Shown here piece by piece: positions 18,561 through 41,851 of a stretch of 64,000 bases of DNA. Position 1 is the first letter of the stretch, and each line of letters opens with the position of its first letter. A model generated the notes under the pieces. It was not told the origin of the DNA. It made no database searches and was given only the letters and a program-made list of their open reading frames with translations. The position numbers and the translations under genes are program-made. The stretch lies in IMG/VR virus record IMGVR_UViG_3300011008_000007, one strand, 5' to 3'. The DNA comes from a virus. Taxonomy: Duplodnaviria; Heunggongvirae; Uroviricota; Caudoviricetes.

Positions 18561-18577
18561 ACATAGCAAAAAAATTA

Positions 18578-18606
18578 TTGACAGACTTATGAAAATATGG
18601 TATAAT
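18578..18606 (+). promoter_or_regulatory. promoter TTGACA-N17-TGgTATAAT
   Basis: Hexamers 18578-18583 and 18601-18606. Confidence 0.55.
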
Positions 18607-18684
18607 AAGACCATAGTGAAAAAGGTTTTAGCACTATCTTTTTTATCATTTACAAACCTATCAAAAAAAATAAAGGAAAGAAGA

Positions 18685-19311
18685 ATGAATATGACAAATG
18701 TAAATGTAGTTAATAATGTTCCAGATATTAATGTTAATATCGACAAATCAAAAAGCGGTATTTCTATCACCATAACTCAGAAATTAGGCAAATCCCTAAA
18801 GGATTATAAACCAGGTGAAACAGCAAAGATTGGGGATAGAGAATACATTGTACTCGAACAGATGGATGACAAAACGGCTGTTCTTGATAAAAATGTTGTT
18901 GAGAAGATGGAGTTTGGCAAAGATGCTAAATGGAACGGCAGCAACGTCGAAAAATATTGTGAGGGAGAGTATTATAATTCTCTTGCCAAAGTAGTAGGAA
19001 AAGATAATATTTTATCTCACACAGTAGACCTTATGTGCGATGATGGCTCTAATAAAGGTGTATTTTCTACAAACAATGTTTCGGTATTAACTCCCGAACT
19101 ATACCGTAAGTATAGAGAATTGATTCCTTTGGTTGATATTTCTTGTTGGACGCCTAATGGTGTAACGGTTCTCGATGAAGATTATGCGCGCTGCGTTTGC
19201 ATTGTCATCTGCAATGGCATCCTGGATTGGGGTGTCTGTGATTGGACTCATGGTGTGCGCCCGTTTTGTATCTTGAAATCTAACGTCTTGACCTCACAAT
19301 TAGATGAATGA
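18685..19311 (+). CDS. DGR target (variable) protein with C-terminal VR, CLec-fold-like C-terminus
   Basis: ATG 18685 after AAAGGAAAG. C-terminus ...ARCVCIVICNGILDWGVCDWTHGVRPFCILK carries VR 19185-19265, which differs from the downstream TR only at TR adenines. Confidence 0.65.
   Translation: MNMTNVNVVNNVPDINVNIDKSKSGISITITQKLGKSLKDYKPGETAKIGDREYIVLEQMDDKTAVLDKNVVEKMEFGKDAKWNGSNVEKYCEGEYYNSLAKVVGKDNILSHTVDLMCDDGSNKGVFSTNNVSVLTPELYRKYRELIPLVDISCWTPNGVTVLDEDYARCVCIVICNGILDWGVCDWTHGVRPFCILKSNVLTSQLDE
19185..19265 (+). repeat. DGR variable repeat (VR)
   Basis: 81 nt aligning to TR 19702-19782; about 12 mismatches, all at adenines of TR; GC-rich 3' end GGTGTGCGCCCG identical in both. Confidence 0.75.
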
Positions 19312-19673
19312 GTAATGAAAATAAATTTTTAATAGGTAATAAAGCCGAAAAATTATATTTTGATATTTTAGATAAAACAACTAATAGAAAGAAATATCCC
19401 GTAAAATTTCGGAGGCTTGCCGATAAGTTACAAGAAACTTCTTTAGAAATTTATTCTTGTGTTATTGATGCAAATGAGATTACACCCAATACATTATCTC
19501 GCAAACAATGCAAATTTGATATGCAGACAAATGCAATATCGGGTTGTAAAAAATTAAACAGCTTGATTAAGTATTGTTTACATTCAAGTCTTATTAGTAA
19601 TGCTGTTGGTGAGTATTGGAGCTCGTTGGCAACAGAAATTAAGAAAATGACTTTAGCTTGGCGAAAGATTTGA
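19308..19673 (+). CDS. DGR accessory variability determinant (Avd)-like protein
   Basis: About 120 aa helical protein between the target gene and TR, the canonical Avd position. Confidence 0.5.
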   Translation: MSNENKFLIGNKAEKLYFDILDKTTNRKKYPVKFRRLADKLQETSLEIYSCVIDANEITPNTLSRKQCKFDMQTNAISGCKKLNSLIKYCLHSSLISNAVGEYWSSLATEIKKMTLAWRKI

Positions 19674-19701
19674 TTGATTGATTCTTTAGGTTATGTGCTG
19701 T

Positions 19702-19782
19702 AACGCGCAACGTTTGCATTGTCAACTACAATGGCATCCTGAATTGGAATGACTGTAATTGGACTCATGGTGTGCGCCCGTT
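19702..19782 (+). repeat. DGR template repeat (TR)
   Basis: Intergenic, between avd and RT; cognate of VR. Confidence 0.75.
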
Positions 19783-19893
19783 CTGGTTTATTAGCGAGGT
19801 CTATAAGCTGCTAAGGCGGCTACAAGGAGTGCTACAAAATATCAAAAGAGTACATAACCTTTCTCAAATATTATGGGATAAATACAAAAGAAT

Positions 19894-20928
19894 ATGGGAG
19901 ATTTTCAGAAACTAATAGATTTTGGAAACCTATATAATTCCTGTCAAGTCTCTCTTAAAGGCAAAGGAAAGAAACAAAGTGCTATAAAATTTAATATAGA
20001 TGCCTTGGAAAATATTTTGCTTATGAAGCAAGAATTAATCCAACGTACATATCAAATTGGTAAGTACAATGAATTTGTTGTTTCTGAGCCGAAACGAAGA
20101 ATAATTAAATCAGGTACTTTTCGTGATAAGGTTCTTCAACATTGCCTATGCGACTACGTTCTATTACCCAAATTAAAAGATATTTTTATTTTGGATAATT
20201 ACGCTGGTCAAATAGGCAAAGGAACTTTATTTGGATTAAATCGTTTATCAGAAAATCTAAGTAATTTCTATGGCGAATTTGGCTATAGTGGATATATTTT
20301 AAAGTGTGATATTACTAAATTCTTTTATAGTATTAATCACACCTTAATGAAAATCTGTGTAAATAAATATTTTAAAGACCCTGATATACGTTGGGTTTGT
20401 GGATTATTTATAGATAGTACAGATGGGGATGGACTTCCATTGGGCAACCAAGTAAGCCAAGTTTTTGGTTTAATGTATCTCAATGGATTAGACCACTACA
20501 TTACAGAAGAATTAGGAATTAAATACTATGGACGGTATATGGACGATTTTTATTTAATATCGGAAAGTAAAGAAAAATTAAAAAATTGTTTACGGAAAAT
20601 AACGGAATTATTAGAAAAGATAAAGCTAACATTAAATAATAAAACAGAAATTGTACCTATAACAAAAGGAATTAGATTTTTAGGTTTTCATACATATTTA
20701 ACCGAAGAAGGAAAAGTAATAAGAAAATTAACTGGAGATAATAAACGCCAGATAAAAAAGAGATTGCGAAAATATGCCAATTTCGTAAAACTTGGCAAAA
20801 TGTCAAGAAAAGAATTTGATGAAAAATATATTGCTTGGAAGAATCATGCTTCACACGGCAATTGTTATAGATTGATTTGTAGTATGGATGAATTTGTAGA
20901 ATCTTTGTTTAATCAAAAAGGAGAGTAA
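19894..20928 (+). CDS. DGR reverse transcriptase
   Basis: RT motifs including YGRYMDDFYLI (YxDD); position downstream of TR. Confidence 0.8.
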   Translation: MGDFQKLIDFGNLYNSCQVSLKGKGKKQSAIKFNIDALENILLMKQELIQRTYQIGKYNEFVVSEPKRRIIKSGTFRDKVLQHCLCDYVLLPKLKDIFILDNYAGQIGKGTLFGLNRLSENLSNFYGEFGYSGYILKCDITKFFYSINHTLMKICVNKYFKDPDIRWVCGLFIDSTDGDGLPLGNQVSQVFGLMYLNGLDHYITEELGIKYYGRYMDDFYLISESKEKLKNCLRKITELLEKIKLTLNNKTEIVPITKGIRFLGFHTYLTEEGKVIRKLTGDNKRQIKKRLRKYANFVKLGKMSRKEFDEKYIAWKNHASHGNCYRLICSMDEFVESLFNQKGE

Positions 20929-20933: not shown

Positions 20934-21998
20934 ATGAGAAAATACATTGACGGTAAAAACCGCTTTGTTGAAGTTTTTAATCCCAAAACGGGGTTTTATA
21001 TGAGAACGGGTATTATTGACAAAGAGGGGAAAGATACAGGTGTTGACCCCTTTATGCGCTCTTATCCTGCATTAATTGATATTGGAATTATGGAGCGCTG
21101 CGTGTGTGCCCACAAGTGTAAAGTAGATTGTTATCAAAAGGCTTGTGACCGAAATGGCGAAAATATGAGCCTTGAAGATTACACTTGGATTATGGAACAG
21201 AGTAAAGGTAAGCTCCAGCAGGTGGCTTTGGGCGGCGCTGGCGACCCCGATACCCACGAAAACTTTGAGGATATTTTAAAAGTAACACGAGAATATGGTA
21301 TTGTTCCCAATTTTACAAGTTCAGGTATTACTTTCACAAAAGAAAAGGCTAAGTTGTGTAATAAATATTGCGGAGCGGTAGCAATCAGTTGGCATAATGA
21401 GGATTATACATTTAATTCAATCCAAATGCTATTGGAAGCGGGAGTTAAAACAAATATTCATTATGTTCTTTCCTCTAAATCTATTGATGACGCAATAGAT
21501 AGATTAAAGAATAATGGCTTCCCAAAGGGTATTAATGCAATTGTATTTCTTCTTTATAAACCTATTGGACTCGGCAAAATTGAGAATATATTAACTGCTA
21601 ATAATCCAAAGCTCAAAGAATTTTTTGATTTAATAGATAACGGGGATTTTAATTTTAAAATTGGATTCGATTCTTGTACTTGCCCTGGAATTATTAATAA
21701 TACTCAGAACATAAATCTCGACAGTATAGATTACTGTGAGGGCGGACGTTTTTCAATGTATATATCTGCCGATATGAACGCAATGCCTTGTTCTTTTGGA
21801 AATCAAAATCCAAAGTGGTATGTAAACCTTAGAGAGAATACCATTCAAGAGGCTTGGGATGGAGCTATATTTGAGAGATTTAGAAACTCATTAAGATATT
21901 CTTGCCCGAATTGTTTAAAGCGTGCAGGTTGCGCAGGCGGCTGTCCAATTTGCAGAGATATTGTTTTGTGTAACAAGGAGTGTAAGGAACTAATATGA
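20934..21998 (+). CDS. putative radical-SAM-like / SPASM-type Cys-rich protein (tentative)
   Basis: N-terminal Cys cluster CVCAHKCKVDC, GGAGDP (GGE-like) motif, C-terminal CPNCLKRAGCAGGCPIC cluster. Confidence 0.3.
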   Translation: MRKYIDGKNRFVEVFNPKTGFYMRTGIIDKEGKDTGVDPFMRSYPALIDIGIMERCVCAHKCKVDCYQKACDRNGENMSLEDYTWIMEQSKGKLQQVALGGAGDPDTHENFEDILKVTREYGIVPNFTSSGITFTKEKAKLCNKYCGAVAISWHNEDYTFNSIQMLLEAGVKTNIHYVLSSKSIDDAIDRLKNNGFPKGINAIVFLLYKPIGLGKIENILTANNPKLKEFFDLIDNGDFNFKIGFDSCTCPGIINNTQNINLDSIDYCEGGRFSMYISADMNAMPCSFGNQNPKWYVNLRENTIQEAWDGAIFERFRNSLRYSCPNCLKRAGCAGGCPICRDIVLCNKECKELI

Positions 21999-24336: not shown

Positions 24337-24870
24337 ATGACAAAATTACTTGTAGTTGTTGATATGCAGAACGATTTTATTGATGGTGCGCTCGGCACGA
24401 AAGAAGCACAGTCTATAGTCGGTAATGTTGTTAAGAAAATCAACAGTTGGAATGGAAATATTATTGCTACACTTGACACACATTATGAAGACTATCTTAC
24501 AACCAACGAGGGAAAACATCTACCGGTTGAACATTGCATTGTCGGCTCTGATGGTCACGAACTAAATAAAGATATTCACAACGCTTTATTGAATGGTTCC
24601 GGAAAGTTAATGCTTGTTGAGAAACCTTCGTTTGGAAGTACGAGTCTTCCAAATCTAATTGATGACCAAGAGGTAGATTATATTGAGATAGTGGGTTTAT
24701 GTACTGACATCTGCGTGGTGTCCAATGCGTTAATGCTCAAAGCATTTCATCCAGAGATAAAAATTGTTGTTGACCCTTCTTGTTGTGCTGGAGTAACACC
24801 AGAGCTACACAGGGCGGCACTTGATGTAATGAAATCTTGTCAAATTGATATTCTTAATGCGGAGGACTAA
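24337..24870 (+). CDS. pncA: nicotinamidase/isochorismatase-family hydrolase (PncA-like)
   Basis: VVDMQNDF N-terminal motif and catalytic Cys context GLCTDICVVSNA, both typical of PncA/cysteine hydrolases. Confidence 0.6.
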   Translation: MTKLLVVVDMQNDFIDGALGTKEAQSIVGNVVKKINSWNGNIIATLDTHYEDYLTTNEGKHLPVEHCIVGSDGHELNKDIHNALLNGSGKLMLVEKPSFGSTSLPNLIDDQEVDYIEIVGLCTDICVVSNALMLKAFHPEIKIVVDPSCCAGVTPELHRAALDVMKSCQIDILNAED

Positions 24871-24876
24871 TAATAA

Positions 24877-25701
24877 ATGATTAAGATAAATGGCGAAGAA
24901 ATTATAATCGAAAGATTTTATGACGGTACACCGAGAATTAAAGTTAATGAGAAATACGGCGAATTAAGAAGCGTAACTCTTGACTGGATTTATGAGAATG
25001 ATGCTGAACTTGTAAGTCTTATAATGATTAACGGTCATTTAAGAGAACACGGTGTTGAAAAGATATTCTTAAATATGCCTTATTTACCCAATGCAAGAAT
25101 GGACAGAACAGAAAATGAAGAGGAAGTTTTTACACTTAAATATTTCTGTAAAGTGATTAATGGTATGAGTTTTGATGGGATTACGGTTTATGACGCTCAT
25201 TCGAGGGTCGGAGTTGCCTTATTGGACAAGGTTGTTGATATAAACCCAAAGAATGATGTTATCATAGTATTGATTAAGATTGGTGCCTTAGACGAATATT
25301 TAAATATTATTGATGATAATTTCATTTTGTATTTTCCTGACGATGGCGCCGCAAAAAGATATTCTAAAATGTTTCCTAATATCCCATTTGCTTATGGAGA
25401 TAAGGATAGGGATTGGAAAACAGGTAAGATAATTGATACCAAAGTCAAAGACAACGGTATTGACCTTGCAGGCAAGAACGTCCTCATTATTGATGATATA
25501 TGCAGTAAGGGCGGCACATTCTATTATAGTTCCAAGAAACTCAAAGAACTTGGCGTACATAAAATTAATCTCTTCGCCACGCATTGCGAAAATATTGTAT
25601 TAGAGGGTCAAATTTTAGATAGTGGGCTGATTGAAAAATTATATACGGTTGACACTATTTTTACAAAAACACATCCAAAAATTGAGGTGATTCCATATTG
25701 A
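24877..25701 (+). CDS. ribose-phosphate pyrophosphokinase (Prs)-like protein (possible ADPR-pyrophosphate synthetase Adps)
   Basis: MPYLPNARMDRT (Prs IPYxGYARQDR motif) and PRPP-binding loop NVLIIDDICSKGGT; 274 aa, shorter than canonical Prs. Confidence 0.6.
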   Translation: MIKINGEEIIIERFYDGTPRIKVNEKYGELRSVTLDWIYENDAELVSLIMINGHLREHGVEKIFLNMPYLPNARMDRTENEEEVFTLKYFCKVINGMSFDGITVYDAHSRVGVALLDKVVDINPKNDVIIVLIKIGALDEYLNIIDDNFILYFPDDGAAKRYSKMFPNIPFAYGDKDRDWKTGKIIDTKVKDNGIDLAGKNVLIIDDICSKGGTFYYSSKKLKELGVHKINLFATHCENIVLEGQILDSGLIEKLYTVDTIFTKTHPKIEVIPY

Positions 25702-27272
25702 AACCGATAGTTCCTACGCTTTTAATTGATTTTTATAAAGGTGTTCACGCTGAAATGCTCCCTAAAAAGATTGAAAAATCCGTTTCTTATTTTACTCCGA
25801 GAATGAGCAGGGTAAAACGTTGGAAATATGTAGTTTTCTTTGGTTTACAGGGATTTATCAAAGAGTATCTTAGAGATTATTTTAATGAGCATTTCTTTAT
25901 AAGAGGTACCAATGAGGTTGTAAATGAGTATAAAAGAGTAATGGACAATACTCTTGGCGAGGGTATCTATGGAATTGAAAAAATTGAGAAACTGCATAAG
26001 CTCGGCTATTTGCCAATTGAAGTAGTTGCACTTCCCGAAGGCACAAGAGTTCCTATGCACGTTCCTATGTTTGGAATAACTAATACACATCCTGACTTTG
26101 CTTGGCTTCCGCAGGCTCTTGAAAGTTTAATTTCAGCAGAGGTTTGGCATCCTATGGTCGCGGCTACGGTTGGAGATACATATCGCCAAATTGTAAACAA
26201 GTATTATAAAGAAACTTGCGACGACAACATTTCGAGAGCGCGAGCTTTGGGTAGTTTTGACTTCCGTGGAGATGAAGGACTTGAAAACGCAACAAAAACA
26301 GGCGCAGCTTGGTTGTTGTCTTTCTTGAATACGGCTACTGTACCGGCAATTCCATACCTTGAAGAATACTATAATTGTGATTGTACAAAAGAGCCTGTTG
26401 GTTTTGGTTCTCCATCTACTGAGCATTCTGTTATGTGTAGCAACTATGCCGTAGACGGTGATGAGACTACTTTGCTTCGCAGATTATTGACCGAAATTTA
26501 CCCAAATACTTCTTTCTCGGCAGTTCTTGATAGTTACGACTACTGGAACGTAATTGACAATATTCTTCCTCAGTTAAAACCTGAGATTATGTCACATAAC
26601 GGCTGTATGCTTATGCGCGGTGATAGCGGAGATTGCGTTGATGTTGTAACCAAAACAGTATTCAAGCTATGGGATATTTTTGGTGGCACAACGAACAGTA
26701 AGGGATATAAAGTTCTCGACCCGCACGTTAAAGCTATTTATGGAGATAGCATTACTGTTCAGCGCTGCGAGCAGGTTTATCAAATTTTAAAAGATAACGG
26801 ATTTGCCGCGTCAAACGTGGCGCTTGGAGTTGGTTCTTTCTCAATGCAATGTATTGAAGAGGAAGAGGAAATCGGAGTTTTAATTCCTGGCGGAACAGAG
26901 ATATACAGACAGGGCAACACCGTTTCTACAATTGAGGGAGATACAAAATTCATTTGTACAATGCCTATTTTAAAGCCATTCACAAGAGACACATTTTCTA
27001 TGGCTATTAAAGCAACATATTGTGAAGTTGATGGTAAGCCCGTTCCCATTTTCAAAAATCCAAAAGACGGCGGATTTAAGAAATCTCAAAAAGGCTGTTG
27101 TGTTGTAGAAGAGGATGCATTTGGCGGTTTACAATATAAAGATAATTACACTTGGGAAGAGGCACAGAATAACAAAAATCAACTTCTCAAAACAGTTTTT
27201 ATAGACGGAACAATGGAAAAAGAACATTCTCTTTCGGAGATTAGAAATAGACTTCACAAAGGTGATTTTTAA
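25698..27272 (+). CDS. NAMPT-family phosphoribosyltransferase (NadV/Namat-like)
   Basis: Several blocks co-linear with nicotinamide phosphoribosyltransferase: FYKGVHAEMLP, VVFFGLQGFIKEYL, LPIEVVALPEGTRVP, FDFRGDEG, IYGDSIT. Confidence 0.7.
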   Translation: MKPIVPTLLIDFYKGVHAEMLPKKIEKSVSYFTPRMSRVKRWKYVVFFGLQGFIKEYLRDYFNEHFFIRGTNEVVNEYKRVMDNTLGEGIYGIEKIEKLHKLGYLPIEVVALPEGTRVPMHVPMFGITNTHPDFAWLPQALESLISAEVWHPMVAATVGDTYRQIVNKYYKETCDDNISRARALGSFDFRGDEGLENATKTGAAWLLSFLNTATVPAIPYLEEYYNCDCTKEPVGFGSPSTEHSVMCSNYAVDGDETTLLRRLLTEIYPNTSFSAVLDSYDYWNVIDNILPQLKPEIMSHNGCMLMRGDSGDCVDVVTKTVFKLWDIFGGTTNSKGYKVLDPHVKAIYGDSITVQRCEQVYQILKDNGFAASNVALGVGSFSMQCIEEEEEIGVLIPGGTEIYRQGNTVSTIEGDTKFICTMPILKPFTRDTFSMAIKATYCEVDGKPVPIFKNPKDGGFKKSQKGCCVVEEDAFGGLQYKDNYTWEEAQNNKNQLLKTVFIDGTMEKEHSLSEIRNRLHKGDF

Positions 27273-27742
27273 TGATTAGGATTGTTGATGGCGATTTATT
27301 AGAAAGTAAAGCTAACATTATTGCACATCAAGTTAATTGTCAAGGAGTAATGGGTTCGGGTGTGGCAAAAGCCATAAAAAAGAATTATCCGTATGCTTTT
27401 AAATGTTATAAAGAATACATAAAAGAAAATTCTCCCGAATTGGTATTTGGATTTTGTCAGCTTGTACCCATTTATCTTCCGTCTGGAAAACCAAAATATA
27501 TAGCAAATTTATTTGGACAGTTTGATTATGGATATAACGGAGATTGCTACACAAACATAGACAAGCTCCGCACGGCTTTTCTTGCATTAAATGAATTTGC
27601 AGAAGAAGAAAACCTAACCGTTGCTATGCCATATAAAATTGGCTGTGTTCGTGGCGGCGCAAACTGGAACGAGGTTTTAAAAATGATTTGCAATATTTTT
27701 CAAAACGTTTACGTCGAAATTAGGCGTTTAGATAGAGGTTAA
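27272..27742 (+). CDS. macro domain protein (ADP-ribose binding/hydrolase)
   Basis: IIAHQVNCQGVMGSGVAKAI matches the Macro-domain Gly-rich ADP-ribose pocket motif. Confidence 0.55.
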   Translation: MIRIVDGDLLESKANIIAHQVNCQGVMGSGVAKAIKKNYPYAFKCYKEYIKENSPELVFGFCQLVPIYLPSGKPKYIANLFGQFDYGYNGDCYTNIDKLRTAFLALNEFAEEENLTVAMPYKIGCVRGGANWNEVLKMICNIFQNVYVEIRRLDRG

Positions 27743-27744
27743 TT

Positions 27745-28503
27745 ATGTATGATATGATTACGAAAATAAAAGAAGATTGCGTTAAATGGATTAGCTCGTG
27801 GTTTAATAAGAATGGTTGGCAATGTAATGCAATCGTTGGTATTTCTGGTGGAATTGATTCAAGTGTAGTTGCCGCTCTTTGTGTAGAAGCTCTCGGCAAA
27901 GAACGTGTTATTGGTGTATTGATGCCGAATGGAGTTCAGCCAGATATTGATTATGCTTATAAGCTCATCAATCATTTAGGAATCGAGAGTATAGAAATCA
28001 ACATTAAAGATTCCGTAGATAATATCATAAAACAGATAGACAATGCTTCGGAGCAGACATTGATTAATTTGCCGGCACGAATTAGAATGTCAACATTATA
28101 TGCGGTTTCTCAAAGTAATAACGGCAGGGTAGCAAACACTTGTAATTTATCAGAAGATTATATTGGTTACTCAACAAGATATGGAGATAGTGTTGGTGAT
28201 TTTAGCCCATTGGCTCACTTTACTAAATCGGAAGTATTGTTGATTGCAGATAAATTGGGATTGCCTAAAGAACTAATTGAAAAGGTGCCGACAGATGGAT
28301 TGAGCGGCAAAACCGATGAAGAGAATTTTGGATTTACATACGAACAATTGGATAAGGAGATTAGAGGTTGTTATAATTATCCAAAGACCAATTTAGAGAG
28401 AGAAATCACAAATAAGATTGATGAACTACACAAGAAAAATGAGTTTAAATTAAAGCCTATGGATTGTTATGATTTCCACGGATTTAAACATTATACAAGC
28501 TAA
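27745..28503 (+). CDS. nadE: NH3-dependent NAD+ synthetase
   Basis: PP-loop GISGGIDSSVV and overall NadE-like length and order. Confidence 0.7.
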   Translation: MYDMITKIKEDCVKWISSWFNKNGWQCNAIVGISGGIDSSVVAALCVEALGKERVIGVLMPNGVQPDIDYAYKLINHLGIESIEINIKDSVDNIIKQIDNASEQTLINLPARIRMSTLYAVSQSNNGRVANTCNLSEDYIGYSTRYGDSVGDFSPLAHFTKSEVLLIADKLGLPKELIEKVPTDGLSGKTDEENFGFTYEQLDKEIRGCYNYPKTNLEREITNKIDELHKKNEFKLKPMDCYDFHGFKHYTS

Positions 28504-28528: not shown

Positions 28529-28816
28529 ATGATAAATTATGATAATCTTGTAAATTATTTAAAAGTTAATGCTTTAGGTAAATCAAACCCAATAACAAGC
28601 AGAGTAATATGTAATTATTTTGGTTGTTCTTCTGCGGATTTAAGAAAAAATGTTAATCTTGCGCGCAATAACGGATATGGGATTTGTTCTTCTGTAAAAG
28701 GATATTATTATGCGACCAACAAGGAAGATATAAATGAAACTATTAACCAATTGCGCAGCAGAATTGCAAAAATAAAGGAAGCAATTAGCGGCTTAGAAGA
28801 GGGTGCTTGTGTATGA
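28529..28816 (+). CDS. hypothetical protein
   Basis: ORF with SD. Confidence 0.4.
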   Translation: MINYDNLVNYLKVNALGKSNPITSRVICNYFGCSSADLRKNVNLARNNGYGICSSVKGYYYATNKEDINETINQLRSRIAKIKEAISGLEEGACV

Positions 28817-29283
28817 AATTCAGAACCGATTTTGTAACAAACAGTAGTTCAAGTAGTTTTATTCTTGGTTTTAAATCAGAGGATTCAATAAAGGAAGAAT
28901 TGGAATATAGTGCCGGACTTGGTGCGGACTATGTATTCAACGATATAAAAGACCTTAAAAGATTAAGTGTTGACGAGCTTAAAGATTTAATCAGAGAAGA
29001 ATATATTTGGAACGCTCGATATAAGATTGAGCACGCCTACGAAAGAGAGCATAGATGTTCATATTCTGAGGCTTATGAGTATGTTAAATCCGATGAGGGT
29101 AAAAAGGCTGTTGAAGATTATCTTAATTGTCTTGTCAACAGAATAATGGAAACCATTAAACGCAACGGATATACGGTATTTGTTGAAACCTCTTATTGCG
29201 ACCACGACCCGATTGAATCTCAGCTTGAACATATGATTATGCCCGATTCAGCTAATACGCTGCTCACAATTAATAATCATTAA
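28813..29283 (+). CDS. paralog 1 of MKxRTDFVTNSSSSSF family
   Basis: N-terminus MKFRTDFVTNSSSSSFILGF; rest unrelated to the other paralogs. Confidence 0.55.
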   Translation: MKFRTDFVTNSSSSSFILGFKSEDSIKEELEYSAGLGADYVFNDIKDLKRLSVDELKDLIREEYIWNARYKIEHAYEREHRCSYSEAYEYVKSDEGKKAVEDYLNCLVNRIMETIKRNGYTVFVETSYCDHDPIESQLEHMIMPDSANTLLTINNH

Positions 29284-29295
29284 TGAGGTTGATAT

Positions 29296-29613
29296 ATGAA
29301 AATTAGAACTGACTTTGTGACCAATTCCAGTAGCAGTAGTTTTGTAATCTGCAAAAAGGATATTGATAAAGAAAAAATTGAATATATAGAAAGAAAATTC
29401 GAGAGGGTTACAAGTAAAGAATTATTGGAAATGTGTAGAAATTTCGATGTTTGTTATGCGACATATTTTCTTGTTGATTATGAGCCCTGCGATGAAGAAA
29501 TGCACATTTGGGTAAGACGAGACGAGGCAATGTATGATGAATATATAGACGATACTCTTTATGACAAAGATTGCAGTTGCGACATTGAACCCAAATTCGA
29601 TTATCACTATTAA
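29296..29613 (+). CDS. paralog 2 of MKxRTDFVTNSSSSSF family
   Basis: MKIRTDFVTNSSSSSFVICK... Confidence 0.55.
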   Translation: MKIRTDFVTNSSSSSFVICKKDIDKEKIEYIERKFERVTSKELLEMCRNFDVCYATYFLVDYEPCDEEMHIWVRRDEAMYDEYIDDTLYDKDCSCDIEPKFDYHY

Positions 29614-29622
29614 GGAGTCATT

Positions 29623-29895
29623 ATGAAGATAAGATATGATTTCGTAACCAATAGTAGTTCTTCAAGTTTTGTTATATCCAAAAGTGTTTTATCGCCGCGA
29701 CAAATTGAGATAATCAAAGACCATATCAATTACGCTAAAAAGCATAATTTTGATAATTATTGTTGTGCAGAAGACGCTTGGAATGTATATGAAAACGAAA
29801 AAGATATTAACGTTTGGTCAATTTTGGATAATTTCGATATGTATTCTTTCTTAATTGAAATCGGAGTTAAACCAGAAGATATAAAGGATGAATAG
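29623..29895 (+). CDS. paralog 3 of MKxRTDFVTNSSSSSF family
   Basis: MKIRYDFVTNSSSSSFVISK... Confidence 0.55.
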   Translation: MKIRYDFVTNSSSSSFVISKSVLSPRQIEIIKDHINYAKKHNFDNYCCAEDAWNVYENEKDINVWSILDNFDMYSFLIEIGVKPEDIKDE

Positions 29896-29897
29896 AA

Positions 29898-30491
29898 ATG
29901 AAATATAGATTAGATTTTGTAACAAATTCAAGTAGTTCGAGTTTTGTTTGTGAAATTTGCGGTAGGGAAGAATGTGGATTTGACCTTAGTTTAAGCGATT
30001 GCGAAATGGCAGAATGTGTAAATGGTCACATTTTCTGCGTTGACGAAATGCTACCCACTCCAAATAAAGAAGAACTCATAAAAATCATATTGGATAATGA
30101 ATTAAATACAGACCGTTGGGATGATACAATTAAAGAATATCGAGATTTTACTGCCGAAGAATTGAAAACCAAGTCAAAAGAAATTTTGTTTGAGGAATTT
30201 TGTTCTGAGGGCGGCAATTATGAGGTACCTGAATGTGTTTGTCCGATTTGTCAATTTATTGAATATTCCGAAAAAGATTTGAGCAAATACCTTGAAAAAG
30301 AATATGGGGTAAGTAGAGATGAAATTTTTGCTAAAATAAAAGAACTGAATAGGCGCCGCCGCAAATTATATGATAGCGAATACATAACAGAGGTGTGTCA
30401 AAGATTTAACCTCAAACCAGCCGAAATAGTTTCAGAGTGGAAAGAGAAATTCAACTCATATGAAGAGTTTTCCAAATATATTATGGAGTAA
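29898..30491 (+). CDS. paralog 4 of MKxRTDFVTNSSSSSF family (Cys-pair rich)
   Basis: MKYRLDFVTNSSSSSFVCEICG...; multiple CxxC pairs. Confidence 0.55.
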   Translation: MKYRLDFVTNSSSSSFVCEICGREECGFDLSLSDCEMAECVNGHIFCVDEMLPTPNKEELIKIILDNELNTDRWDDTIKEYRDFTAEELKTKSKEILFEEFCSEGGNYEVPECVCPICQFIEYSEKDLSKYLEKEYGVSRDEIFAKIKELNRRRRKLYDSEYITEVCQRFNLKPAEIVSEWKEKFNSYEEFSKYIME

Positions 30492-30496
30492 GTATA

Positions 30497-30913
30497 ATGA
30501 AAATAAGAACAGATTTTGTAACCAATAGTTCAAGTAGTAGTTTTATAATTGCATATAAAGATATTCCTCCAGAGAATCCAAGTGATTTGTACTATAATCT
30601 TTATAAAGAAATCATTAACGGGATTGTAACAAGTGAATCCGGTGACACATCCGAGGCAACGGTTTATACGACCAAAGAAGAACTTGATAAACGTTTTCTA
30701 TCTTGTTATACGTTTGGCGACGAAACTTTAGAGGATTTATTCGAGGATGATGAATATCTTAAAGACCTTTACAAAAAAATTGCCAAATATTTGGATAAAG
30801 GTTACTCTATAATGGATAAGAGTATTGATTATAACGATAACGGACTCATTAGCTTAATACAAACAATAGCGCAAGGAAATGAGAACTTCGTTATTATTGA
30901 TGAAGGAGAATAA
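30497..30913 (+). CDS. paralog 5 of MKxRTDFVTNSSSSSF family
   Basis: MKIRTDFVTNSSSSSFIIAYK... Confidence 0.55.
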   Translation: MKIRTDFVTNSSSSSFIIAYKDIPPENPSDLYYNLYKEIINGIVTSESGDTSEATVYTTKEELDKRFLSCYTFGDETLEDLFEDDEYLKDLYKKIAKYLDKGYSIMDKSIDYNDNGLISLIQTIAQGNENFVIIDEGE

Positions 30914-30938: not shown

Positions 30939-30967
30939 TTGACAAATTGATAAAAGTATGCTATAAT
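30939..30967 (+). promoter_or_regulatory. promoter with A-rich block + TTGACA-N17-TGcTATAAT
   Basis: Hexamers 30939-30944 and 30962-30967; followed by a 250 nt structured leader before the flotillin gene. Confidence 0.55.
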
Positions 30968-31214
30968 ACATACTGTAATCAAGAGAGTAACAAATTGAGT
31001 GGTGAGTAAAAAGCCTTTTGACAAATGGAGAAATTTTATTAGAATAAGTTAATTCCTCTCCCTTGAAAGGAGAAAATTTCGGTTAAAGCCCGAAATAAGA
31101 TTTTAAAGTTTGGATAAAGAAAAAGATAACGTCGCGCGAGTTATCTCCTATAGGTGTAAGTCCTATGGCTCAATTTTACATAGATAAACTAAAGATTAAG
31201 GAGTTTATTTTACT

Positions 31215-33261: not shown

Positions 33262-33729
33262 GGGGCAGTTCTGGTATTCGACAGGCTGTTGAAAGAATAA
33301 ACTTCGCAGGTAAGCTACAACCTTAATGTGCAAACTTAAAAATAAACGACAAAACTGTTGTAACACTTCATCCTGCTCTTGTAGCAACACTCTCACAGAG
33401 GGCTGCCGCATAAGCAAATTTGGATGCCAAAACAATACTCCTGCTATTCGGTAAGTATTTGAGGTTTAGGATAGAGTAGCAAAATGGTTTCTTGCTTCCA
33501 CAAAAAGTAAGTGGTGGATTTGGTTTGACGAAACTTGTCATCCCCATTCGGAATATCACGAGACCGTCACCGAATTAAAATATAAGGAGTATTATTATGG
33601 AATGCGATTAATTTAATAAAACTATGAGAACGGTAGAGGCTCGGACGGCAAAAAGAATACCTATTGCGTAAAAAGAGTTTATTTAAGTATGTAGTTTGGA
33701 CACGAGTTCGATTCTCGTCTGCTCCACCA
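33262..33729 (+). ncRNA. ssrA: tmRNA (SsrA)
   Basis: 5' GGGGCAGTTCTGGTATTCGACAGG (tmRNA consensus GGGGCUGAUUCUGGAUUCGACGGG). 3' GGACACGAGTTCGATTCTCGTCTGCTCCACCA (T-arm + acceptor pairing with the 5' end + CCA). Candidate tag ORF 33330-33413 ending ...QRAAA-stop; length 468 nt is long. Confidence 0.6.
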
Positions 33730-36590: not shown

Positions 36591-38165
36591 ATGTCATTTT
36601 TTAACGAACTTAGAAAGAACATTGATGAGATTAATAATCTCCAAAAGACCGAAAACGGAGCAGTAGGTTATAAAACTACTGGCAAGAAGTTGTTGGATAT
36701 GAACTTCTCGATTCCCAAGTACAGAAAGGCAAATGAGGCTGAAATTATAGCCGATTTTGAACAGTCATTTAACGAGAACGAGATTCTTGCTATTCTTTGG
36801 ATGTTTTTCGCAAGAGATGTTCGTGGCGGACTTGGCGAAAGAAGATTATTCCGCATTTTATTCAACTGGTTTTGCAAAGAGCACACCAAGTATGCAAAAG
36901 AGTTGCTTGAATGTGTAGCAGAATATGGTCGCTGGGACGACCTTGTTAAAGCTACGGACAACACTCCTGTATGGGATGATGCGGTAGTGCTTATCAAAAA
37001 GCAGCTCACAGAAGACTTATTGAATTTTGAGGCTTCTAAAAGTATCTCACTTTTGGCTAAGTGGCTTCCGAGTGAAAGGACTTCAAGTCAGAAAACGAGA
37101 ATCCTTGCCCGCAAGTTAGCAAAGGCGCTTTCAATCAACATTGCTGATTATAACCGCATTTGTGTTAAGCTGCGCAAGTATCTTGATGTAACTGAAATCA
37201 AGATGAGCGCAAAAGAGTGGGAGAATATCAATTATTCTACGGTTCCTTCGGGCGCAAATGTAAAGTACAACAATGCTTTTCTGCGCAATGACGAAGAAAG
37301 ACGCAGAGCATATTTGGAGTCTTTGAAAAAGGGCGAAACTAAAATCAATGCTTCTGCTTTGTTCCCACACGACATTGTACATAAGTATAGCAAAAATTCT
37401 TATTGGCACGGTTCAGTAGGCTCATATGACGAAGCTCTTGAACAGTTGTGGAAGGCTCTTCCCGATATGGGCGGACTCGAAAACACGATTGTTGTTGCCG
37501 ACGGCTCTGGTTCAATGACTTGTAGAGTTGACCCAAATAGTACAACTTCTGCGCTTGAAGTAGCCAATGGTTTAGCTTTGTATTGTGCTGAACATTGCAA
37601 GGGAGAATTTAAGGATAAATATATCACATTCTCATCCAGACCTCAGTTTGTAGATTTGAGCAACAAAATCTCACTACACGACAAATTGGCTGAGGCTTAC
37701 AGACACGACGAGTGTTCAAATACCGACATCCAGGCTGTATTTGACCTTATACTCCATACTGCAACTTCAACCAATGCCAAACAAGAGGATATTCCTAAGA
37801 CTATTCTTATTGTTTCCGATATGGAGTTCGATGCCGCAACAAGTACAGGCGGTTGGTATGGTTCATCATCTTCTCTCACTCCGTCACTTTTTAAAGTAAT
37901 TGACAGAAAATATAAGGAAGCAGGTTATCAGTTGCCGCGCCTTGTATTTTGGAATGTAAACTCTCGCACAGGCACAATTCCAATGAAAGAGAATGACCTT
38001 GGAGTAACTTTGGTTAGTGGCTTCTCAATTTCGATTGTGCAGATGGTGCAGAACGGCGAAACCGACCCATACCTCAATCTTGTCAAGGTTCTTATGGGAG
38101 ATAGATATATGCCCATTTGTGCAAAATTACTCGGAAATACATTTAATAAGGAGAACTACAAATGA
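36591..38165 (+). CDS. vWA-domain protein, Ro60/TROVE-like (Rsr-like) candidate
   Basis: MIDAS motif VVADGSGSMT about 300 aa in; C-terminal blocks (IVSDMEFDAA...LPRLVFWNVNSRTGT...LGVTLVSGFS) co-linear with the Ro60 vWA region; about 520 aa like Ro60. Confidence 0.45.
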   Translation: MSFFNELRKNIDEINNLQKTENGAVGYKTTGKKLLDMNFSIPKYRKANEAEIIADFEQSFNENEILAILWMFFARDVRGGLGERRLFRILFNWFCKEHTKYAKELLECVAEYGRWDDLVKATDNTPVWDDAVVLIKKQLTEDLLNFEASKSISLLAKWLPSERTSSQKTRILARKLAKALSINIADYNRICVKLRKYLDVTEIKMSAKEWENINYSTVPSGANVKYNNAFLRNDEERRRAYLESLKKGETKINASALFPHDIVHKYSKNSYWHGSVGSYDEALEQLWKALPDMGGLENTIVVADGSGSMTCRVDPNSTTSALEVANGLALYCAEHCKGEFKDKYITFSSRPQFVDLSNKISLHDKLAEAYRHDECSNTDIQAVFDLILHTATSTNAKQEDIPKTILIVSDMEFDAATSTGGWYGSSSSLTPSLFKVIDRKYKEAGYQLPRLVFWNVNSRTGTIPMKENDLGVTLVSGFSISIVQMVQNGETDPYLNLVKVLMGDRYMPICAKLLGNTFNKENYK

Positions 38166-38995
38166 GTAAGAATTACAGCGAATTTGACAAACGAATGAAA
38201 AAATATGAGTTTGTCACAAGAACACATTTGATGACACGAACTCCTGCTATTATTAGAATTGACGGAAAGGCTTTCCATACGTTTACAAAGGGATTTAAAA
38301 AGCCTTTCGACGAAGTTCTGCAAAACAGTATGCAGGAAACAATGAAGTATTTATGTGAGAATATCCAGGGATGTGTTCTTGGATATGCGCAGTCTGATGA
38401 AATCACTTTGGTTTTGACAGATTATAAGACTCTCGAAACTTCGGCTTGGTTCGATTATAACATTCAAAAGTGCGCAAGTGTTGCGGCAAGTATGGCGACT
38501 ATGGCATTTAACAGAGCATTCCGCAAGAATGTTTTTGACTGGATGGAAGCTAATAACCCCGAAGATAAGTCTAATAATGAAGAAACTATAGCATACCATA
38601 ATCAGTTCGGTTCATATAACGCAGCATTTAATAGGGGAGCTCTATTTGATGCAAGGGTATTCAATATTCCCAAAGAAGAAGTTTGTAACAACATTCTTTG
38701 GCGCCAACAAGATGCTATCAGAAATTCTATCCAAATGGTAGGACGTTCATTCTATTCCGACAAAGAGCTTTTCGAGAAATCCACAAAGGATATTCAGGAA
38801 ATGTTATCTACGGACAAGAAAATAAATTGGGCTGAGGATTATCCTATTAGATTTCAGCGTGGTAGTTGCTGCATTAAGAAGTATGATGAGAATACCGGTC
38901 ATAATGAGTGGGTAATTGATAATGAAATCCCTATTTTCAAAGAAGAGGGAAGAGCATATATTGATAATCTTGTATTTTGCGGCGAAAATTTATAA
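38162..38995 (+). CDS. Thg1-like protein (tRNA-His guanylyltransferase family / 3'-5' polymerase)
   Basis: IIRIDGKAFHTFTKGFKKPFDE ... VLGYAQSDEITLVL matches Thg1 catalytic blocks (RxDGxxFHxF, xKPxDxR, YGQSDEYSF). Confidence 0.65.
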   Translation: MSKNYSEFDKRMKKYEFVTRTHLMTRTPAIIRIDGKAFHTFTKGFKKPFDEVLQNSMQETMKYLCENIQGCVLGYAQSDEITLVLTDYKTLETSAWFDYNIQKCASVAASMATMAFNRAFRKNVFDWMEANNPEDKSNNEETIAYHNQFGSYNAAFNRGALFDARVFNIPKEEVCNNILWRQQDAIRNSIQMVGRSFYSDKELFEKSTKDIQEMLSTDKKINWAEDYPIRFQRGSCCIKKYDENTGHNEWVIDNEIPIFKEEGRAYIDNLVFCGENL

Positions 38996-39036
38996 ATAAA
39001 ACTTGCATTTTATTTATAAAACTATCTAAAAAATTA

Positions 39037-39065
39037 TTGACAAATCAATAAAAATATGCTATAAT
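39037..39065 (+). promoter_or_regulatory. promoter TTGACA-N17-TGcTATAAT
   Basis: Hexamers 39037-39042 and 39060-39065. Confidence 0.55.
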
Positions 39066-39157
39066 ACAGTTGTAATGAGGGCGAGGGTAAGTTTAACAAC
39101 TCAAACTCCCTCGCCTTTATTGGAAATAATAAACCTATCAATAAAATTAGAGGAAAT

Positions 39158-39343
39158 ATGTATTATAAATTTATTTGTCCAAAGTGCGGAAAGCATATTG
39201 AGTTACAGATACCGATTTCACAATATAGTTCGGAAGGGCATTTTTGTGAATGCGGAGCCGAATTACAACGTGACCCAAGCGACTTCTGTACAAACAGTAA
39301 AAGGAATATAGATGGATTCTTCGGAACGTCAACCAAAAGTTAA
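39158..39343 (+). CDS. small zinc-ribbon protein
   Basis: CPKCGK...CECGAEL pairs; RBS AGAGGAAA. Confidence 0.4.
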   Translation: MYYKFICPKCGKHIELQIPISQYSSEGHFCECGAELQRDPSDFCTNSKRNIDGFFGTSTKS

Positions 39344-39346
39344 TAT

Positions 39347-39429
39347 GCGGGTGTGGCGAAATTGGCATACGCGCGAGATTTAGGTTCTCGTGTTTCGGCG
39401 TGCAGGTTCAAGTCCTGTCACCCGCACCA
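39347..39429 (+). tRNA. tRNA-Leu(TAG), type II
   Basis: Acceptor GCGGGTG/CACCCGC, anticodon arm CGAGA-TTTAGGT-TCTCG, long variable region, CCA. Confidence 0.6.
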
Positions 39430-39627
39430 AAATATAAGACACATACAGCAATCAATACATAAATTTGGCTCAAACTTTTAATTTGAATACCTTTTTATAG
39501 TGTCTTGGAGTATAAATTCCTTTCATTTTATAAATAAGGCGCACACAGCGATTTTACAATGGATTAATAAAAGCTCTTGAAAAGTTTTTTAGAGGGTTCA
39601 AGTCCCTCAACCGCGTCTTGAAATATG

Positions 39628-39703
39628 CACCATTAGTACAATCGGTTAGTACAGTCGGCTGATAATCGACAGACTGTGGTTCAAATCCACGATGGTGTAC
39701 CAG
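39628..39703 (+). tRNA. tRNA-Ile(GAT)
   Basis: Acceptor GCACCAT/ATGGTGT (G1-U72), D-stem GTAC/GTAC, anticodon loop CTGATAA, T-arm TGTGGTTCAAATCCACG, CCA. Confidence 0.6.
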
Positions 39704-39749
39704 TGTGTTTGATTTAGCACACAAATTCAATCGTTTTATTATTTTTTTC
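39704..39749 (+). terminator. intrinsic terminator
   Basis: Hairpin GTGTGTTTGATTTAGCACAC followed by T-tract TTTTATTATTTTTTT. Confidence 0.55.
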
Positions 39750-39799
39750 ATAAGAAAAATATCTGTTGCTTGCTGTCCGGTTTAAAGCAACAGGTATAT

Positions 39800-39894
39800 G
39801 GCAGCCTAACCCTAATTGGTAAGGGAGTAGTCTTGAAAACTACCAGTAATCGCCGAGAGGTGGTGTCTCGGTTCAAGTCCGAGGGCTGTCGCCA
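39800..39894 (+). tRNA. tRNA-Ser(TGA), type II
   Basis: Acceptor GGCAGCC/GGCTGTC, anticodon arm GTAGT-CTTGAAA-ACTAC, long variable arm, T-arm CTCGGTTCAAGTCCGAG, CCA. Confidence 0.65.
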
Positions 39895-40569
39895 ATGACC
39901 TGATGGCGCGTCAGGACGGTTTGGGATTAGCCCATCACAGCCGATACCGTAAAAACAGAAGACCTCTCAATAATAAAAGTATTAACTGGATTATTGAAGT
40001 CGCCCACCTGTTCCAAAGTCGGTGTTTAAAATAGATAGTCAATGTTGCGAATATAGACGGGGCAATTTTCATATAAGCAAGATGAACTCAATAGAGAACC
40101 CATCGGCAAAGTCCTCGTTAGCCACCTCCGCGGGCACTGCTTCTATGGCTGATGGTGCCTATTGACTTCCATATAAACGAGAAGAACGCAACTCTCTGTT
40201 CGGGTCGAAATGATATATACCCGTTCGGTGCTGATACCTATCAGACGGTTATATGGCGTTACACTCCTACCAATACGATAAATTGGGGAAACACAATAGG
40301 GAGAAGAATAATGAAAGCACATTACAACAAGCAATTTTCAAACTATGGACGATTGATTGTGCATTCGGTGTGGTTGCATTTATCATAGGGCACAAATTGC
40401 GACAATTAAATAATTAGTTGGAAGAAAAGGGCGAAAAAGACATAAGCTATGACTTCCCGATAATCTTCAAGGTGTGGACGTGGTGTTGGCTATGCAAACC
40501 AACTGATAGTGTTTAGGCATAGAGTAGAAATTATCTCTTCCAGCTAATTGTTTTGATTGTTTTAGATAT

Positions 40570-40655
40570 GCGGGTGTGATGGAATTGGCAGACATAAGGG
40601 ACTTAAAATCCCTTGGGTTTATCCCGTATCAGTTCGAGTCTGATTACCCGCACCA
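40570..40655 (+). tRNA. tRNA-Leu(TAA), type II
   Basis: Acceptor GCGGGTG/TACCCGC, anticodon arm AGGGA-CTTAAAA-TCCCT, variable hairpin, T-arm ATCAGTTCGAGTCTGAT, CCA. Confidence 0.65.
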
Positions 40656-40743
40656 AAGCAAGAATATTATAATAAAGTTTATACCCTTTGCGGGTCTTAT
40701 AAAAAAGTTTTAATTCTTGCACAGACACAGACAGCAAACCTTA

Positions 40744-40813
40744 AACGAATTAGTCAAACGGTAAGACACACCTCGAAACGGTGCAATTGTGGGTTCAACT
40801 CCCATATTCGCAA
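40744..40813 (+). pseudogene. degenerate tRNA-Phe-like element (anticodon loop TCGAAAC, C33)
   Basis: T-arm GTGGGTTCAACTCCCAT and anticodon GAA-like loop, but only 5 bp of acceptor pairing and C at position 33. Confidence 0.3.
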
Positions 40814-40839
40814 AGCGTGTCTGGAAACAATTGAATATG

Positions 40840-40967
40840 AGGGGTATAGCTCAATTGGTAGAGCGCTGTAATTTTTCAGTATCTTGCAAAAGATACATAC
40901 AGCAAACCATTACATAAAATAATGCTTAGGGAGCCAGATGTTACAGGTTCGAGTCCTGTTGCCCCTC
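40840..40967 (+). ncRNA. atypical tRNA-like gene 1 (128 nt; Ala-like 5' half; internal Cys-like TTGCAAA hairpin)
   Basis: Canonical acceptor AGGGGTA/TGCCCCT, D-arm AGCTCAATTGGTAGAGC and T-arm ACAGGTTCGAGTCCTGT, but about 77 nt between them. Contains hairpin GTATCTTGCAAAAGATAC + ACAGCAAACC. Confidence 0.45.
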
Positions 40968-40975
40968 GCAAATAT

Positions 40976-41097
40976 GCCGGTGTAGCCCAATGGTAGAGCA
41001 GCGGACGCATAATGTGTCTTGATTTAGAAAACACTTGCAGCAATTAAGCGGTCAAGAAAACCGTGTGTTGGAGGTTCGATTCCTCTCCGCCGGCACC
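40976..41097 (+). ncRNA. atypical tRNA-like gene 2 (122 nt; Thr-like ends)
   Basis: Acceptor GCCGGTG/CGCCGGC-A-CCA, D-arm TAGCCCAATGGTAGAGC, T-arm GGAGGTTCGATTCCTCT. Central insert with outer helix CGCATAAT/ATTAAGCG, hairpin GTGTCTTGATTTAGAAAACAC + GCAGCAATT. Confidence 0.45.
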
Positions 41098-41100
41098 AAA

Positions 41101-41220: not shown

Positions 41221-41223
41221 TAT

Positions 41224-41363: not shown

Positions 41364-41376
41364 CTCTCCTTTATTA

Positions 41377-41461: not shown

Positions 41462-41545
41462 AACCCTTTTGTGGCAATCTAAGTCAATATCATAAGATGT
41501 GAGTCCATAATAAATTATTCCTTGCTTTGGGTACAAGGAAAACAT

Positions 41546-41825: not shown

Positions 41826-41851
41826 AATCAAAATAATAAGGAGATAAAATT

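Follow-up and report, generated by a model that had tools for sequence, protein, structure and literature searches.

Five consecutive genes of a Caudoviricetes virus begin with the same short peptide, here called the tag. It is probably recognised and modified by a dedicated radical S-adenosylmethionine (SAM)/SPASM maturase, encoded on the same DNA, that matures acidic effectors. The DNA analysed is a 64,000-nt stretch of the IMG/VR record IMGVR_UViG_3300011008_000007, referred to below as the window. The tagged genes lie at 28813-30913 and the radical SAM (rSAM) enzyme gene at 20934-21998. These five genes represent a very large class of small acidic proteins that is unannotated and marked by a portable N-terminal tag. 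The original prediction, made from the letters of the window, had offered two explanations for the tag, one of which was a leader read by a modifying enzyme with the serine run as a possible modification site. This explanation gained strong genomic support from the two-way coupling of tag and enzyme, their phyletic pattern and their co-variation, and from these we infer the modification itself.

Five tandem genes with a common N-terminus

The five ORFs (paralogs 1 to 5, Table 1) follow one another on the + strand and all start with M-K-(F/I/Y)-R-(T/Y/L)-D-F-V-T-N-S-S-S-S-S-F-(I/V). This element had been described as an invariant 17-mer; all five genes do share it, but invariance extends to 14 of the first 16 residues rather than to the full 17. 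A degenerate DNA pattern for DFVTNSSSSSF occurred five times in the window, where 100 shuffles gave an expectation of 0.00, and no further copy was found on either strand in the six frames. Pairwise, the tag copies differ in 4-7 of the 14 invariant codons, and their serine codons alternate between the AGY and TCN boxes. As the copies use different synonymous codons, conservation acts on the peptide and not on the DNA, in agreement with the prediction that the peptide is under selection. An SD (Shine-Dalgarno)-like purine run precedes every start, as also predicted, and the genes are spaced by 2-13 nt. A convincing promoter or terminator was not found inside the array.

Past residue ~20, the bodies (the parts that follow the tag) do not align, and they fall into five separate BLAST clusters. 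The earlier description of the bodies as completely dissimilar holds in this sense, but all five are acidic (body isoelectric point (pI) 4.1-4.8) and the two that were modelled are alike in layout. The paralog that had been singled out as rich in CxxC pairs is paralog 4. Its first CxxC stands immediately after the tag, its pairs possibly form a zinc ribbon, and its body type occurs in 60 viral loci, the most of any body type. The five proteins had no family matches in Pfam, NCBIfam or PADLOC, and their only match in a PHROGs scan was N-terminal, to phrog_7397. Paralogs 2-5 matched only the first 24-64 positions of that profile (E 2e-4 to 0.06), and they have its tag but are not members of its family. 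No cultured close relative was found among GenBank phages by blastn of the region or by tblastn of paralogs 4 and 5.

The tag is widespread and fixed in register

A search for the leader in other phage genomes, suggested with the original prediction, was fruitful. A strict tag pattern, written as DNA (ATG-AAR-...-TTY), was present in 108 IMG/VR viral stretches, mostly contigs of 50-500 kb and often with 2-5 tandem copies. Genome assemblies of bacteria and archaea also had it, in >120 stretches, mainly from anaerobes: Clostridia, Erysipelotrichaceae, Coriobacteriia, Deltaproteobacteria, Sporomusa, Arenibacter and one candidate phyla radiation (CPR) bacterium. The one Methanoculleus match had no enzyme in the piece examined. 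With a 30-position profile of the five N-termini, 12,614 representative proteins (representatives of clusters at 50% identity) were matched at E <= 0.001 among 1.84 billion, and the match began at residue 1 for nearly every one of the best 150. Tag variants in the database include MKIR-x-GFVSNSSSSSF.

The register of the tag was examined by scanning enzyme-anchored loci for the core [TSA]-N-[ST]4+, with no start codon required. In 310 of 320 ORF matches the start codon stood exactly eight residues before the core. All 310 in-register cores were on the strand of the enzyme, and the remaining matches were stray antisense ones. Among 176 distinct N-termini, M1, R4, T9, N10 and S11-14 were invariant and K2 (175), S15 (174) and D6 (166) nearly so, while position 16 was F or Y and position 17 was I, V or L. 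The class is defined by the consensus M1-K2-x-R4-x-D6-F7-V8-T9-N10-S11-S15-(F/Y)16-(I/V/L)17. Given the specificity of methionine aminopeptidase, Met1 should be retained when a lysine follows at position 2, so that the mature N-terminus would be Met-Lys.

Some database proteins (P0201, P0203, P0295 and P0200) had two tagged units within a single ORF, each unit beginning M-K-x-R. They could be genuine fusions, or a stop codon may have been missed or be recoded in the source phages.

Tag and enzyme are coupled in both directions

The enzyme was found by clustering all ORFs of tag-bearing loci, where one non-tag gene stood out. It was on the same strand as the tagged genes in 62 of the 66 tag-anchored viral loci with at least 1.5 kb before the first tagged gene, and in 43 of the 45 with at least 3 kb upstream. 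In 63 of 66 loci the enzyme was upstream of the tagged genes. The gap had a median of 734 nt; at 6.8 kb, the window is an outlier. The reverse approach, starting from viral loci collected by enzyme alignment, gave 1-7 tagged ORFs on the strand of the enzyme in 77 of 80 loci, and two of the three exceptions end within 500 nt of the enzyme. In the full-length loci, 210 of 218 tagged ORFs were downstream of the enzyme.

Coupling extends to the genome assemblies, where the enzyme was on the same strand in 80 of 101 tag loci. Compact pairs of a tagged gene followed by the enzyme, in these cases with a canonical CxxxCxxC motif, were present in Sporomusa, Arenibacter and a deltaproteobacterial metagenome-assembled genome. 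No phage genes were seen within the 8 kb examined around the Sporomusa and Arenibacter pairs. The tag also co-varies with the enzyme subtype. Canonical Cx3Cx2C enzymes accompany NSSSTSF in 12 of 13 tagged genes, whereas non-canonical enzymes accompany NSSSSS(F/Y), with NSSSTSF in just 6 of 309, and the 31%-identical enzyme of T4-like phages (see below) goes with the tag variant G6/S9.

The strictly N-terminal position and fixed register of an exposed tag could also be expected of a linear motif that is read by the host, such as a degron or a chaperone or protease signal, or of a nascent-peptide effect on translation, the link to the rSAM enzyme being indirect. Conservation among phages of very different hosts fits such a motif, yet a spread over Firmicute, Bacteroidota, Proteobacteria and possibly archaeal assemblies disfavours any single host factor. 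As the near-obligate enzyme partner and the co-variation of tag and enzyme would be left unexplained, we regard a host-read motif as very improbable.

In Sporomusa sp. KB1 (L127, 3313-6808) the pair has two flanking proteins, one carrying the 'integron cassette protein' domain PF21648 and the other a PRTase-CE protein (PF24390). Conflict or defence islands are a frequently reported setting for domains of this kind.

The enzyme resembles peptide and protein maturases

In Pfam, the window enzyme matched SPASM (6.3e-6, above the cut-off) and Radical_SAM (3.4e-3). Its Radical_SAM score of 18 bits is below the cut-off of 29.5, and the Arenibacter ortholog scores 56.5 bits. NCBIfam gave partial matches to W-cofactor maturase, PqqE, NirJ2 and StsB, with scores well short of the cut-offs, and the best matches of the cellular orthologs, still sub-threshold, were MftC, WgkB, ScmE, PqqE and StrB-type. 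A profile search of the PDB matched the SPASM/twitch regions of PqqE, BtrN and the anaerobic sulfatase-maturating enzyme (anSME; E 6e-4); a single-sequence search found nothing there. The nearest named relatives of the enzyme are peptide or protein maturases: MftC, WgkB, PqqE, StrB-type enzymes and anSME. Pentatricopeptide-repeat matches in the PDB profile search were rejected as spurious. PADLOC returned only a weak generic match to viperin-type rSAM proteins (25 bits). The protein database holds at least 4,413 clusters of the enzyme, which are named only 'radical SAM protein with 4Fe4S-binding SPASM domain' or similar.

The canonical radical SAM motif, which binds the SAM-cleaving [4Fe-4S] cluster, is CX3CX2C. 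Cellular orthologs paired with the same tag have this motif, and the commonest phage subtype has Cx7Cx6C. The window enzyme has three conserved cysteines in a non-canonical spacing, C56(x1 C58)x3 C62 x3 C66, i.e., Cx1Cx3Cx3C, followed by Y-Q. The glycine-rich SAM-binding motif is present, with L99-G100 invariant and G101 and G103 found in at least 90% of 12 aligned orthologs; it reads ALGGAGD in the window enzyme and ALGGGNP in the cellular orthologs. SPASM domains carry a C-terminal motif of seven to eight cysteines, including CX2CX5CX3C, that serves two auxiliary [4Fe-4S] clusters. The conserved cysteines here are C248, C268, C286, C324-x2-C327-x5-C333-x3-C337 and C346.

Two orthologs (L107 and L043) carry an insert of ~420 aa that immediately precedes the ALGGAGD motif. 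On visual inspection it resembles an intein whose middle part is homing-endonuclease-like, and its place beside the GGxGD motif is consistent with a functional gene without being proof of one. According to PMC9960720, a GIY-YIG homing endonuclease splits the homolog in Klebsiella phage Kpn35c1.

The system is present in RB16, KP15 and related phages

When 50,697 GenBank phage records were searched by tblastn, 171 of them contained an enzyme homolog with 31% identity over 93% of its length. Every one of these phages is a T4-like member of the Straboviridae; they include RB16 (a phage of E. coli), KP15 (of Klebsiella), Miller, CfP1 and phiEap-3. The immediate neighbourhood of the enzyme in these phages contained no tagged gene. 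A scan of the whole RB16 genome revealed exactly two, RB16p106 and RB16p111, which carry the tag variant MKIRSGFVSNSSSSSF and lie 20-24 kb from the enzyme RB16p156. RB16p106 was present in 174 records and RB16p111 in 175, with a genus breakdown near-identical to that of the enzyme. RB16-type phages have the same system with a variant tag, its genes being spread over ~24 kb, unlike the array of the window. RB16p111 is phrog_7397 (5.7e-118 over the full length), a family to which window paralog 1 also belongs; hhalign aligned the paralog 1 family with it over 140 columns (98.2% probability, E 4.9e-14). RB16p156 is a 'putative radical SAM protein' (phrog_7293). GenBank labels in RB16-, RB43- and KP15-like phages are only hypothetical, 'Fe-S oxidoreductase' or 'head-tail adaptor', and PMC9960720 names no substrate. 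The sequence 'DHFVYNSN' of RB16p155, which follows the enzyme gene in RB16, was considered as a degenerate tag and rejected, as it is not conserved in KP15 or phi5.

These phages bear on the other explanation in the original prediction, capsid targeting like that of the internal proteins IPI-III of T4. The tagged proteins would then lose the tag to the prohead protease and be injected as anti-defence effectors. The architectures are alike: in both cases a short common N-terminus is found on small, unrelated proteins encoded in tandem. An effector role is plausible, and the surroundings of the array look anti-defence-like. The body of RB16p106 also matches phrog_132 (E 3.3e-10), whose label, 'head-tail adaptor', is an automated family name. 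However, the tag lacks the (L/I)-x-E site of the prohead protease, and glutamate is not among the six commonest residues at positions 1-18 of the 176 N-termini. Tag and enzyme also occur in cellular loci in which no phage genes were seen; tagged proteins include membrane-anchored, BRCT-domain and leucine-rich repeat (LRR) types; and the tagged genes of RB16 are in non-structural regions, far from its head genes. Packaging into the capsid, moreover, gives no account of the rSAM partner. The literature searched contained no virion proteomics for phages like RB16 or KP15. Capsid targeting is, on this evidence, extremely improbable.

One tag on many unrelated acidic bodies

The 369 distinct tagged proteins (73-712 aa, median ~140 aa) formed 49 body clusters. 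A single recognisable body family was rejected at the sequence level, as hhalign linked only three pairs of BLAST clusters. Within clusters, mean pairwise identity was 0.81-0.93 for the tag versus 0.21-0.57 for the bodies. Body types include a BRCT-domain family, CxxC-pair types, two with a membrane helix right after the tag and one with a weak LRR match (20.8 bits, under the cut-off of 27.7). Acidity is what the bodies share: their median pI is 4.49, with 89% below 5, compared with 6.4 and 22% for the remaining ORFs of the window. On the most economical interpretation, that of a maturase with its substrates, the tag was acquired or kept by many unrelated acidic proteins.

Paralogs 1 and 5 were modelled with AlphaFold from alignments of database homologs. 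The models reached a predicted local distance difference test score (pLDDT) of 89.5 and 88.6, respectively, and a predicted template modelling score (pTM) of 0.80 each. In both, residues 1-10/11 had no secondary structure and a pLDDT <50 (35-44), and residues 13-20 (SSSF and the next four) formed the first strand of the body, followed by a helical insert and then strand-helix-strand. The body of paralog 5 is a generic alpha/beta sandwich. These predictions fit a tag in the form of a linear, flexible motif that is anchored at the edge of a folded domain. In the family of paralog 1, Y-x-D-H, L-E-H-x-I-M-P and a C-terminal (S/N)-H-H are conserved. The family of paralog 5 has no invariant body residue, and only I18, A19, G102 and F131 reach 90%.

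A separate observation concerns the C-termini. Unrelated clusters share tails such as (R/K)RFSHH, ESHH, R(I/V)SHH, C-x-HMG, GAGR(D/N)G and DYHY. A histidine is found among the last four residues in 94 of the 369 tagged proteins; 61 end in histidine and 60 in glycine. The tails may be a second recognition or reaction site.

The original prediction had named a scenario that would speak against a signal, namely that the leader is the first strand of a common fold whose remainder has diverged. As developed here, the tag would start strand 1 of an ancient, highly diverged alpha/beta fold, it would be conserved for folding or for a ligand or metal site built together with the His-rich C-terminal tail, and the neighbouring rSAM enzyme would not read it. 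Part of the scenario stands: residues 13-20 are strand 1 in both models, the models have a common layout, all bodies are acidic, unrelated clusters have common SHH, HMG or HY tails, and the family of paralog 1 conserves D, H and E residues near its C-terminus. Yet the best-conserved residues, 1-11, are predicted to be disordered and lie outside the fold. The tag is moreover found on membrane-anchored, BRCT, LRR and 700-aa bodies, most body clusters are unrelated by hhalign, the family of paralog 5 lacks an invariant body residue, and tag variants co-vary with the enzyme subtype. A purely structural role for the tag is decidedly unlikely.

A model for tag modification

In our preferred model, in which the tag is read and modified by the rSAM/SPASM enzyme, the first ~12 residues would be flexible and exposed, be anchored to any body through strand 1 (13-20) and thread into the barrel of the enzyme. 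The fixed distance of the core from Met1 suggests that the enzyme reads the free N-terminus. Reductive cleavage of SAM would generate a 5'-deoxyadenosyl radical that abstracts a hydrogen from the T9-N10-S11-S15 stretch, and the two auxiliary SPASM clusters would complete an oxidation or a cross-link. The product could be formylglycine made from serine, as in the anSME reaction, or an ether or C-C link that involves F7, T9 or N10. As no conserved protease, exporter or transporter cluster was found among the sense-strand neighbours of tag loci, the products are probably intact intracellular proteins and not secreted peptides. The modified proteins would thus stay uncleaved in the cell and act as a polymorphic set of phage effectors, a role made probable by the acidic bodies, the tandem arrangement of the genes and the location in an NAD-salvage and anti-defence-type region. 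The broader proposition, that this is a protein-level rSAM modification system with which phages, from those of gut Firmicutes to T4-like ones, mature polymorphic acidic effectors, has in our judgement an even chance of being correct.

The coupling of tag and enzyme would also be compatible with a docking peptide. The tag, perhaps as a pseudo-substrate, would then bind the enzyme and remain unaltered, and the bodies would be adaptors or regulatory subunits that steer the enzyme to other targets, for instance host proteins or nucleic acids. Interaction modules among the bodies (BRCT, LRR and CxxC-pair types, the last possibly zinc ribbons) suit such adaptors, and 1-7 alternative bodies per locus suit interchangeable specificity subunits. 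We nevertheless consider docking rather unlikely. MftC, WgkB, PqqE, StrB-type enzymes and anSME all act on peptides or proteins encoded alongside them, the run of five serines with the preceding T-N resembles a reaction site more than a binding epitope, and no candidate for a third-party substrate is conserved in the loci.

Several points weigh against modification of the tag by this enzyme. Every link between enzyme and tag is genomic or predicted, and the counts of co-variation and co-occurrence include related genomes that are not phylogenetically independent. Enzyme and tagged genes are 6.8-24 kb apart in the window and RB16, and one locus (L249) has the enzyme and no tagged gene within its 2.5 kb downstream. 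The phage enzymes have a non-canonical spacing of the cysteine triad, and weak NCBIfam matches to pseudo-rSAM/SPASM families make a loss of SAM chemistry possible. No recognition element (RRE) of the kind known from ribosomally synthesised peptides that undergo post-translational modification (RiPPs) is evident; the ~55 residues before the rSAM core seem, from the sequence, too short for a typical one. Low pLDDT is common at N-termini, so it is no proof of an exposed motif, and the recurrence of SHH and C-x-HMG tails on unrelated bodies is left unexplained by the model.

Comparison with known systems

A SPASM maturase with its cognate substrates is an already known kind of system. PqqE/PqqA, MftC/MftA, StrB/StrA, WgkB and the sactipeptide and ranthipeptide maturases likewise combine a dedicated SPASM enzyme with nearby genes that contain a short conserved sequence and otherwise vary, and arrays of multiple precursors occur in both. 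Here, however, the place of the precursors is taken by folded proteins of 73-712 aa that represent ~49 mostly unrelated body families, and conservation is confined to ~17 residues at the very N-terminus, the register of which is fixed. The RRE, protease and exporter are not conserved, NCBIfam scores are far sub-threshold and the phage cysteine triad is non-canonical. The tagged system differs from RiPP clusters, with their short leader-core precursor, protease or exporter, and RRE. Like anSME, the enzyme would act on a full-length protein and not on a peptide natural product, at a residue, which can be serine, within a short motif close to the N-terminus. In contrast to the anSME system, the tag does not contain the target motif (C/S)-x-(P/A)-x-R, the five window proteins contain no sulfatase or other Pfam domain, and one enzyme serves many unrelated bodies. 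The tagged proteins did not match PADLOC defence models.

What is new is that whole, diverse proteins are tagged at residue 1, that the system is very large and that its arrays have expanded in phages. No description of the tag or of the system was found in the literature searched, including that on phage rSAM/SPASM systems. If the tag is modified, a large enzyme-substrate system, with ~12,600 tagged clusters and >4,400 enzyme clusters, has gone unnoticed. Folded proteins tagged at residue 1 would then be a new class of rSAM substrate, rSAM/SPASM chemistry would extend from small peptide natural products to whole proteins, and a single enzyme would mature a changeable set of phage effectors. 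This offers a testable role for dozens of 'hypothetical' genes in gut phages and in RB16, RB43-like phages, KP15 and other Slopekvirus, which are well-known cultured phages in therapy work. A 17-residue tag that one enzyme reads on unrelated proteins could, moreover, be encoded genetically as a means of site-specific protein modification, like the formylglycine 'aldehyde tag'.

Neighbourhood of the tagged genes in the window

The tagged array follows an NAD-related block (17763-18560 and 24337-28503) that encodes an ADP-ribosylglycohydrolase, an isochorismatase-type nicotinamidase, a PRPP-synthase-like protein, NAMPT, a Macro protein and an NAD synthase (NadE), and it precedes an SPFH gene. 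In RB16, a nicotinamide mononucleotide (NMN) adenylyltransferase/Nudix gene and an SPFH gene lie no more than ~12 kb away from the tagged genes, and a nicotinate phosphoribosyltransferase gene is found elsewhere in the genome. This placement hints at a possible effector or anti-defence role. The 95-aa ORF directly upstream, the stop of which overlaps the start of paralog 1, is possibly associated with the array; it has no family match and orthologs in only ~10 related loci.

Table 1. Positions of the tagged genes, the enzyme and other features (window coordinates unless RB16 is given)
Feature	Position	Strand	Length	Remarks
Radical SAM/SPASM enzyme	20934..21998	+	354 aa	predicted partner or maturase of the tagged proteins
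Tagged paralog 1	28813..29283	+	156 aa	tag 28813-28863
Tagged paralog 2	29296..29613	+	105 aa	tag 29296-29346; acidic, 6 Cys, C-terminus DYHY; own BLAST cluster of 5
Tagged paralog 3	29623..29895	+	90 aa	tag 29623-29673; BLAST cluster of 14
Tagged paralog 4	29898..30491	+	197 aa	tag 29898-29948; 11 Cys in CxxC pairs
Tagged paralog 5	30497..30913	+	138 aa	tag 30497-30547; generic alpha/beta sandwich body
Tag-bearing peptide sequence				MKIRTDFVTNSSSSSFII
ORF upstream of paralog 1	28529..28816	+	95 aa	stop overlaps paralog 1 start (ATGA)
RB16p106 (RB16)	66610-67077	same as enzyme RB16p156	155 aa	tagged; acidic
RB16p111 (RB16)	70488-71000	same as enzyme RB16p156	170 aa	tagged; acidic
Diversity-generating retroelement, variable repeat	19187-19268			3' end of ORF 18448-19311
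Diversity-generating retroelement, template repeat	19704-19785			
Diversity-generating retroelement, reverse transcriptase	19894-20928			
Phage-encoded transfer-messenger RNA (tmRNA)	33262-33729			76 bits

A diversity-generating retroelement (18448-20928) lies just upstream of the rSAM gene. Its two repeats are 82 nt long and 88% identical, with mismatches, as judged by eye, at template adenines. It was rejected as a part of the tag system, as the reverse transcriptase accompanies the enzyme in only ~7 related loci.

Right after the array, at 30939-31103, the sole perfect sigma-70-type promoter (TTGACA-17-TATAAT with TG) is followed by a tRNA-Ser(UGA) gene. The window has four tRNA-Ser genes, three UGA and one GCU. 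Between 31032 and 41825, ARAGORN found 16 tRNA genes and Rfam 18 tRNA matches. The region 38995-41852 is a tRNA array without a + strand ORF of at least 90 aa. It includes three long matches of 116-128 nt (40840-40967, 40976-41095 and 41102-41217), found by Rfam and not by ARAGORN, which may contain introns. At 36591-38165, a gene encodes a 524-aa protein with DUF7788 (4e-44) and DUF2828 (1.7e-33) domains, an ortholog of which is present in ~8 related loci.

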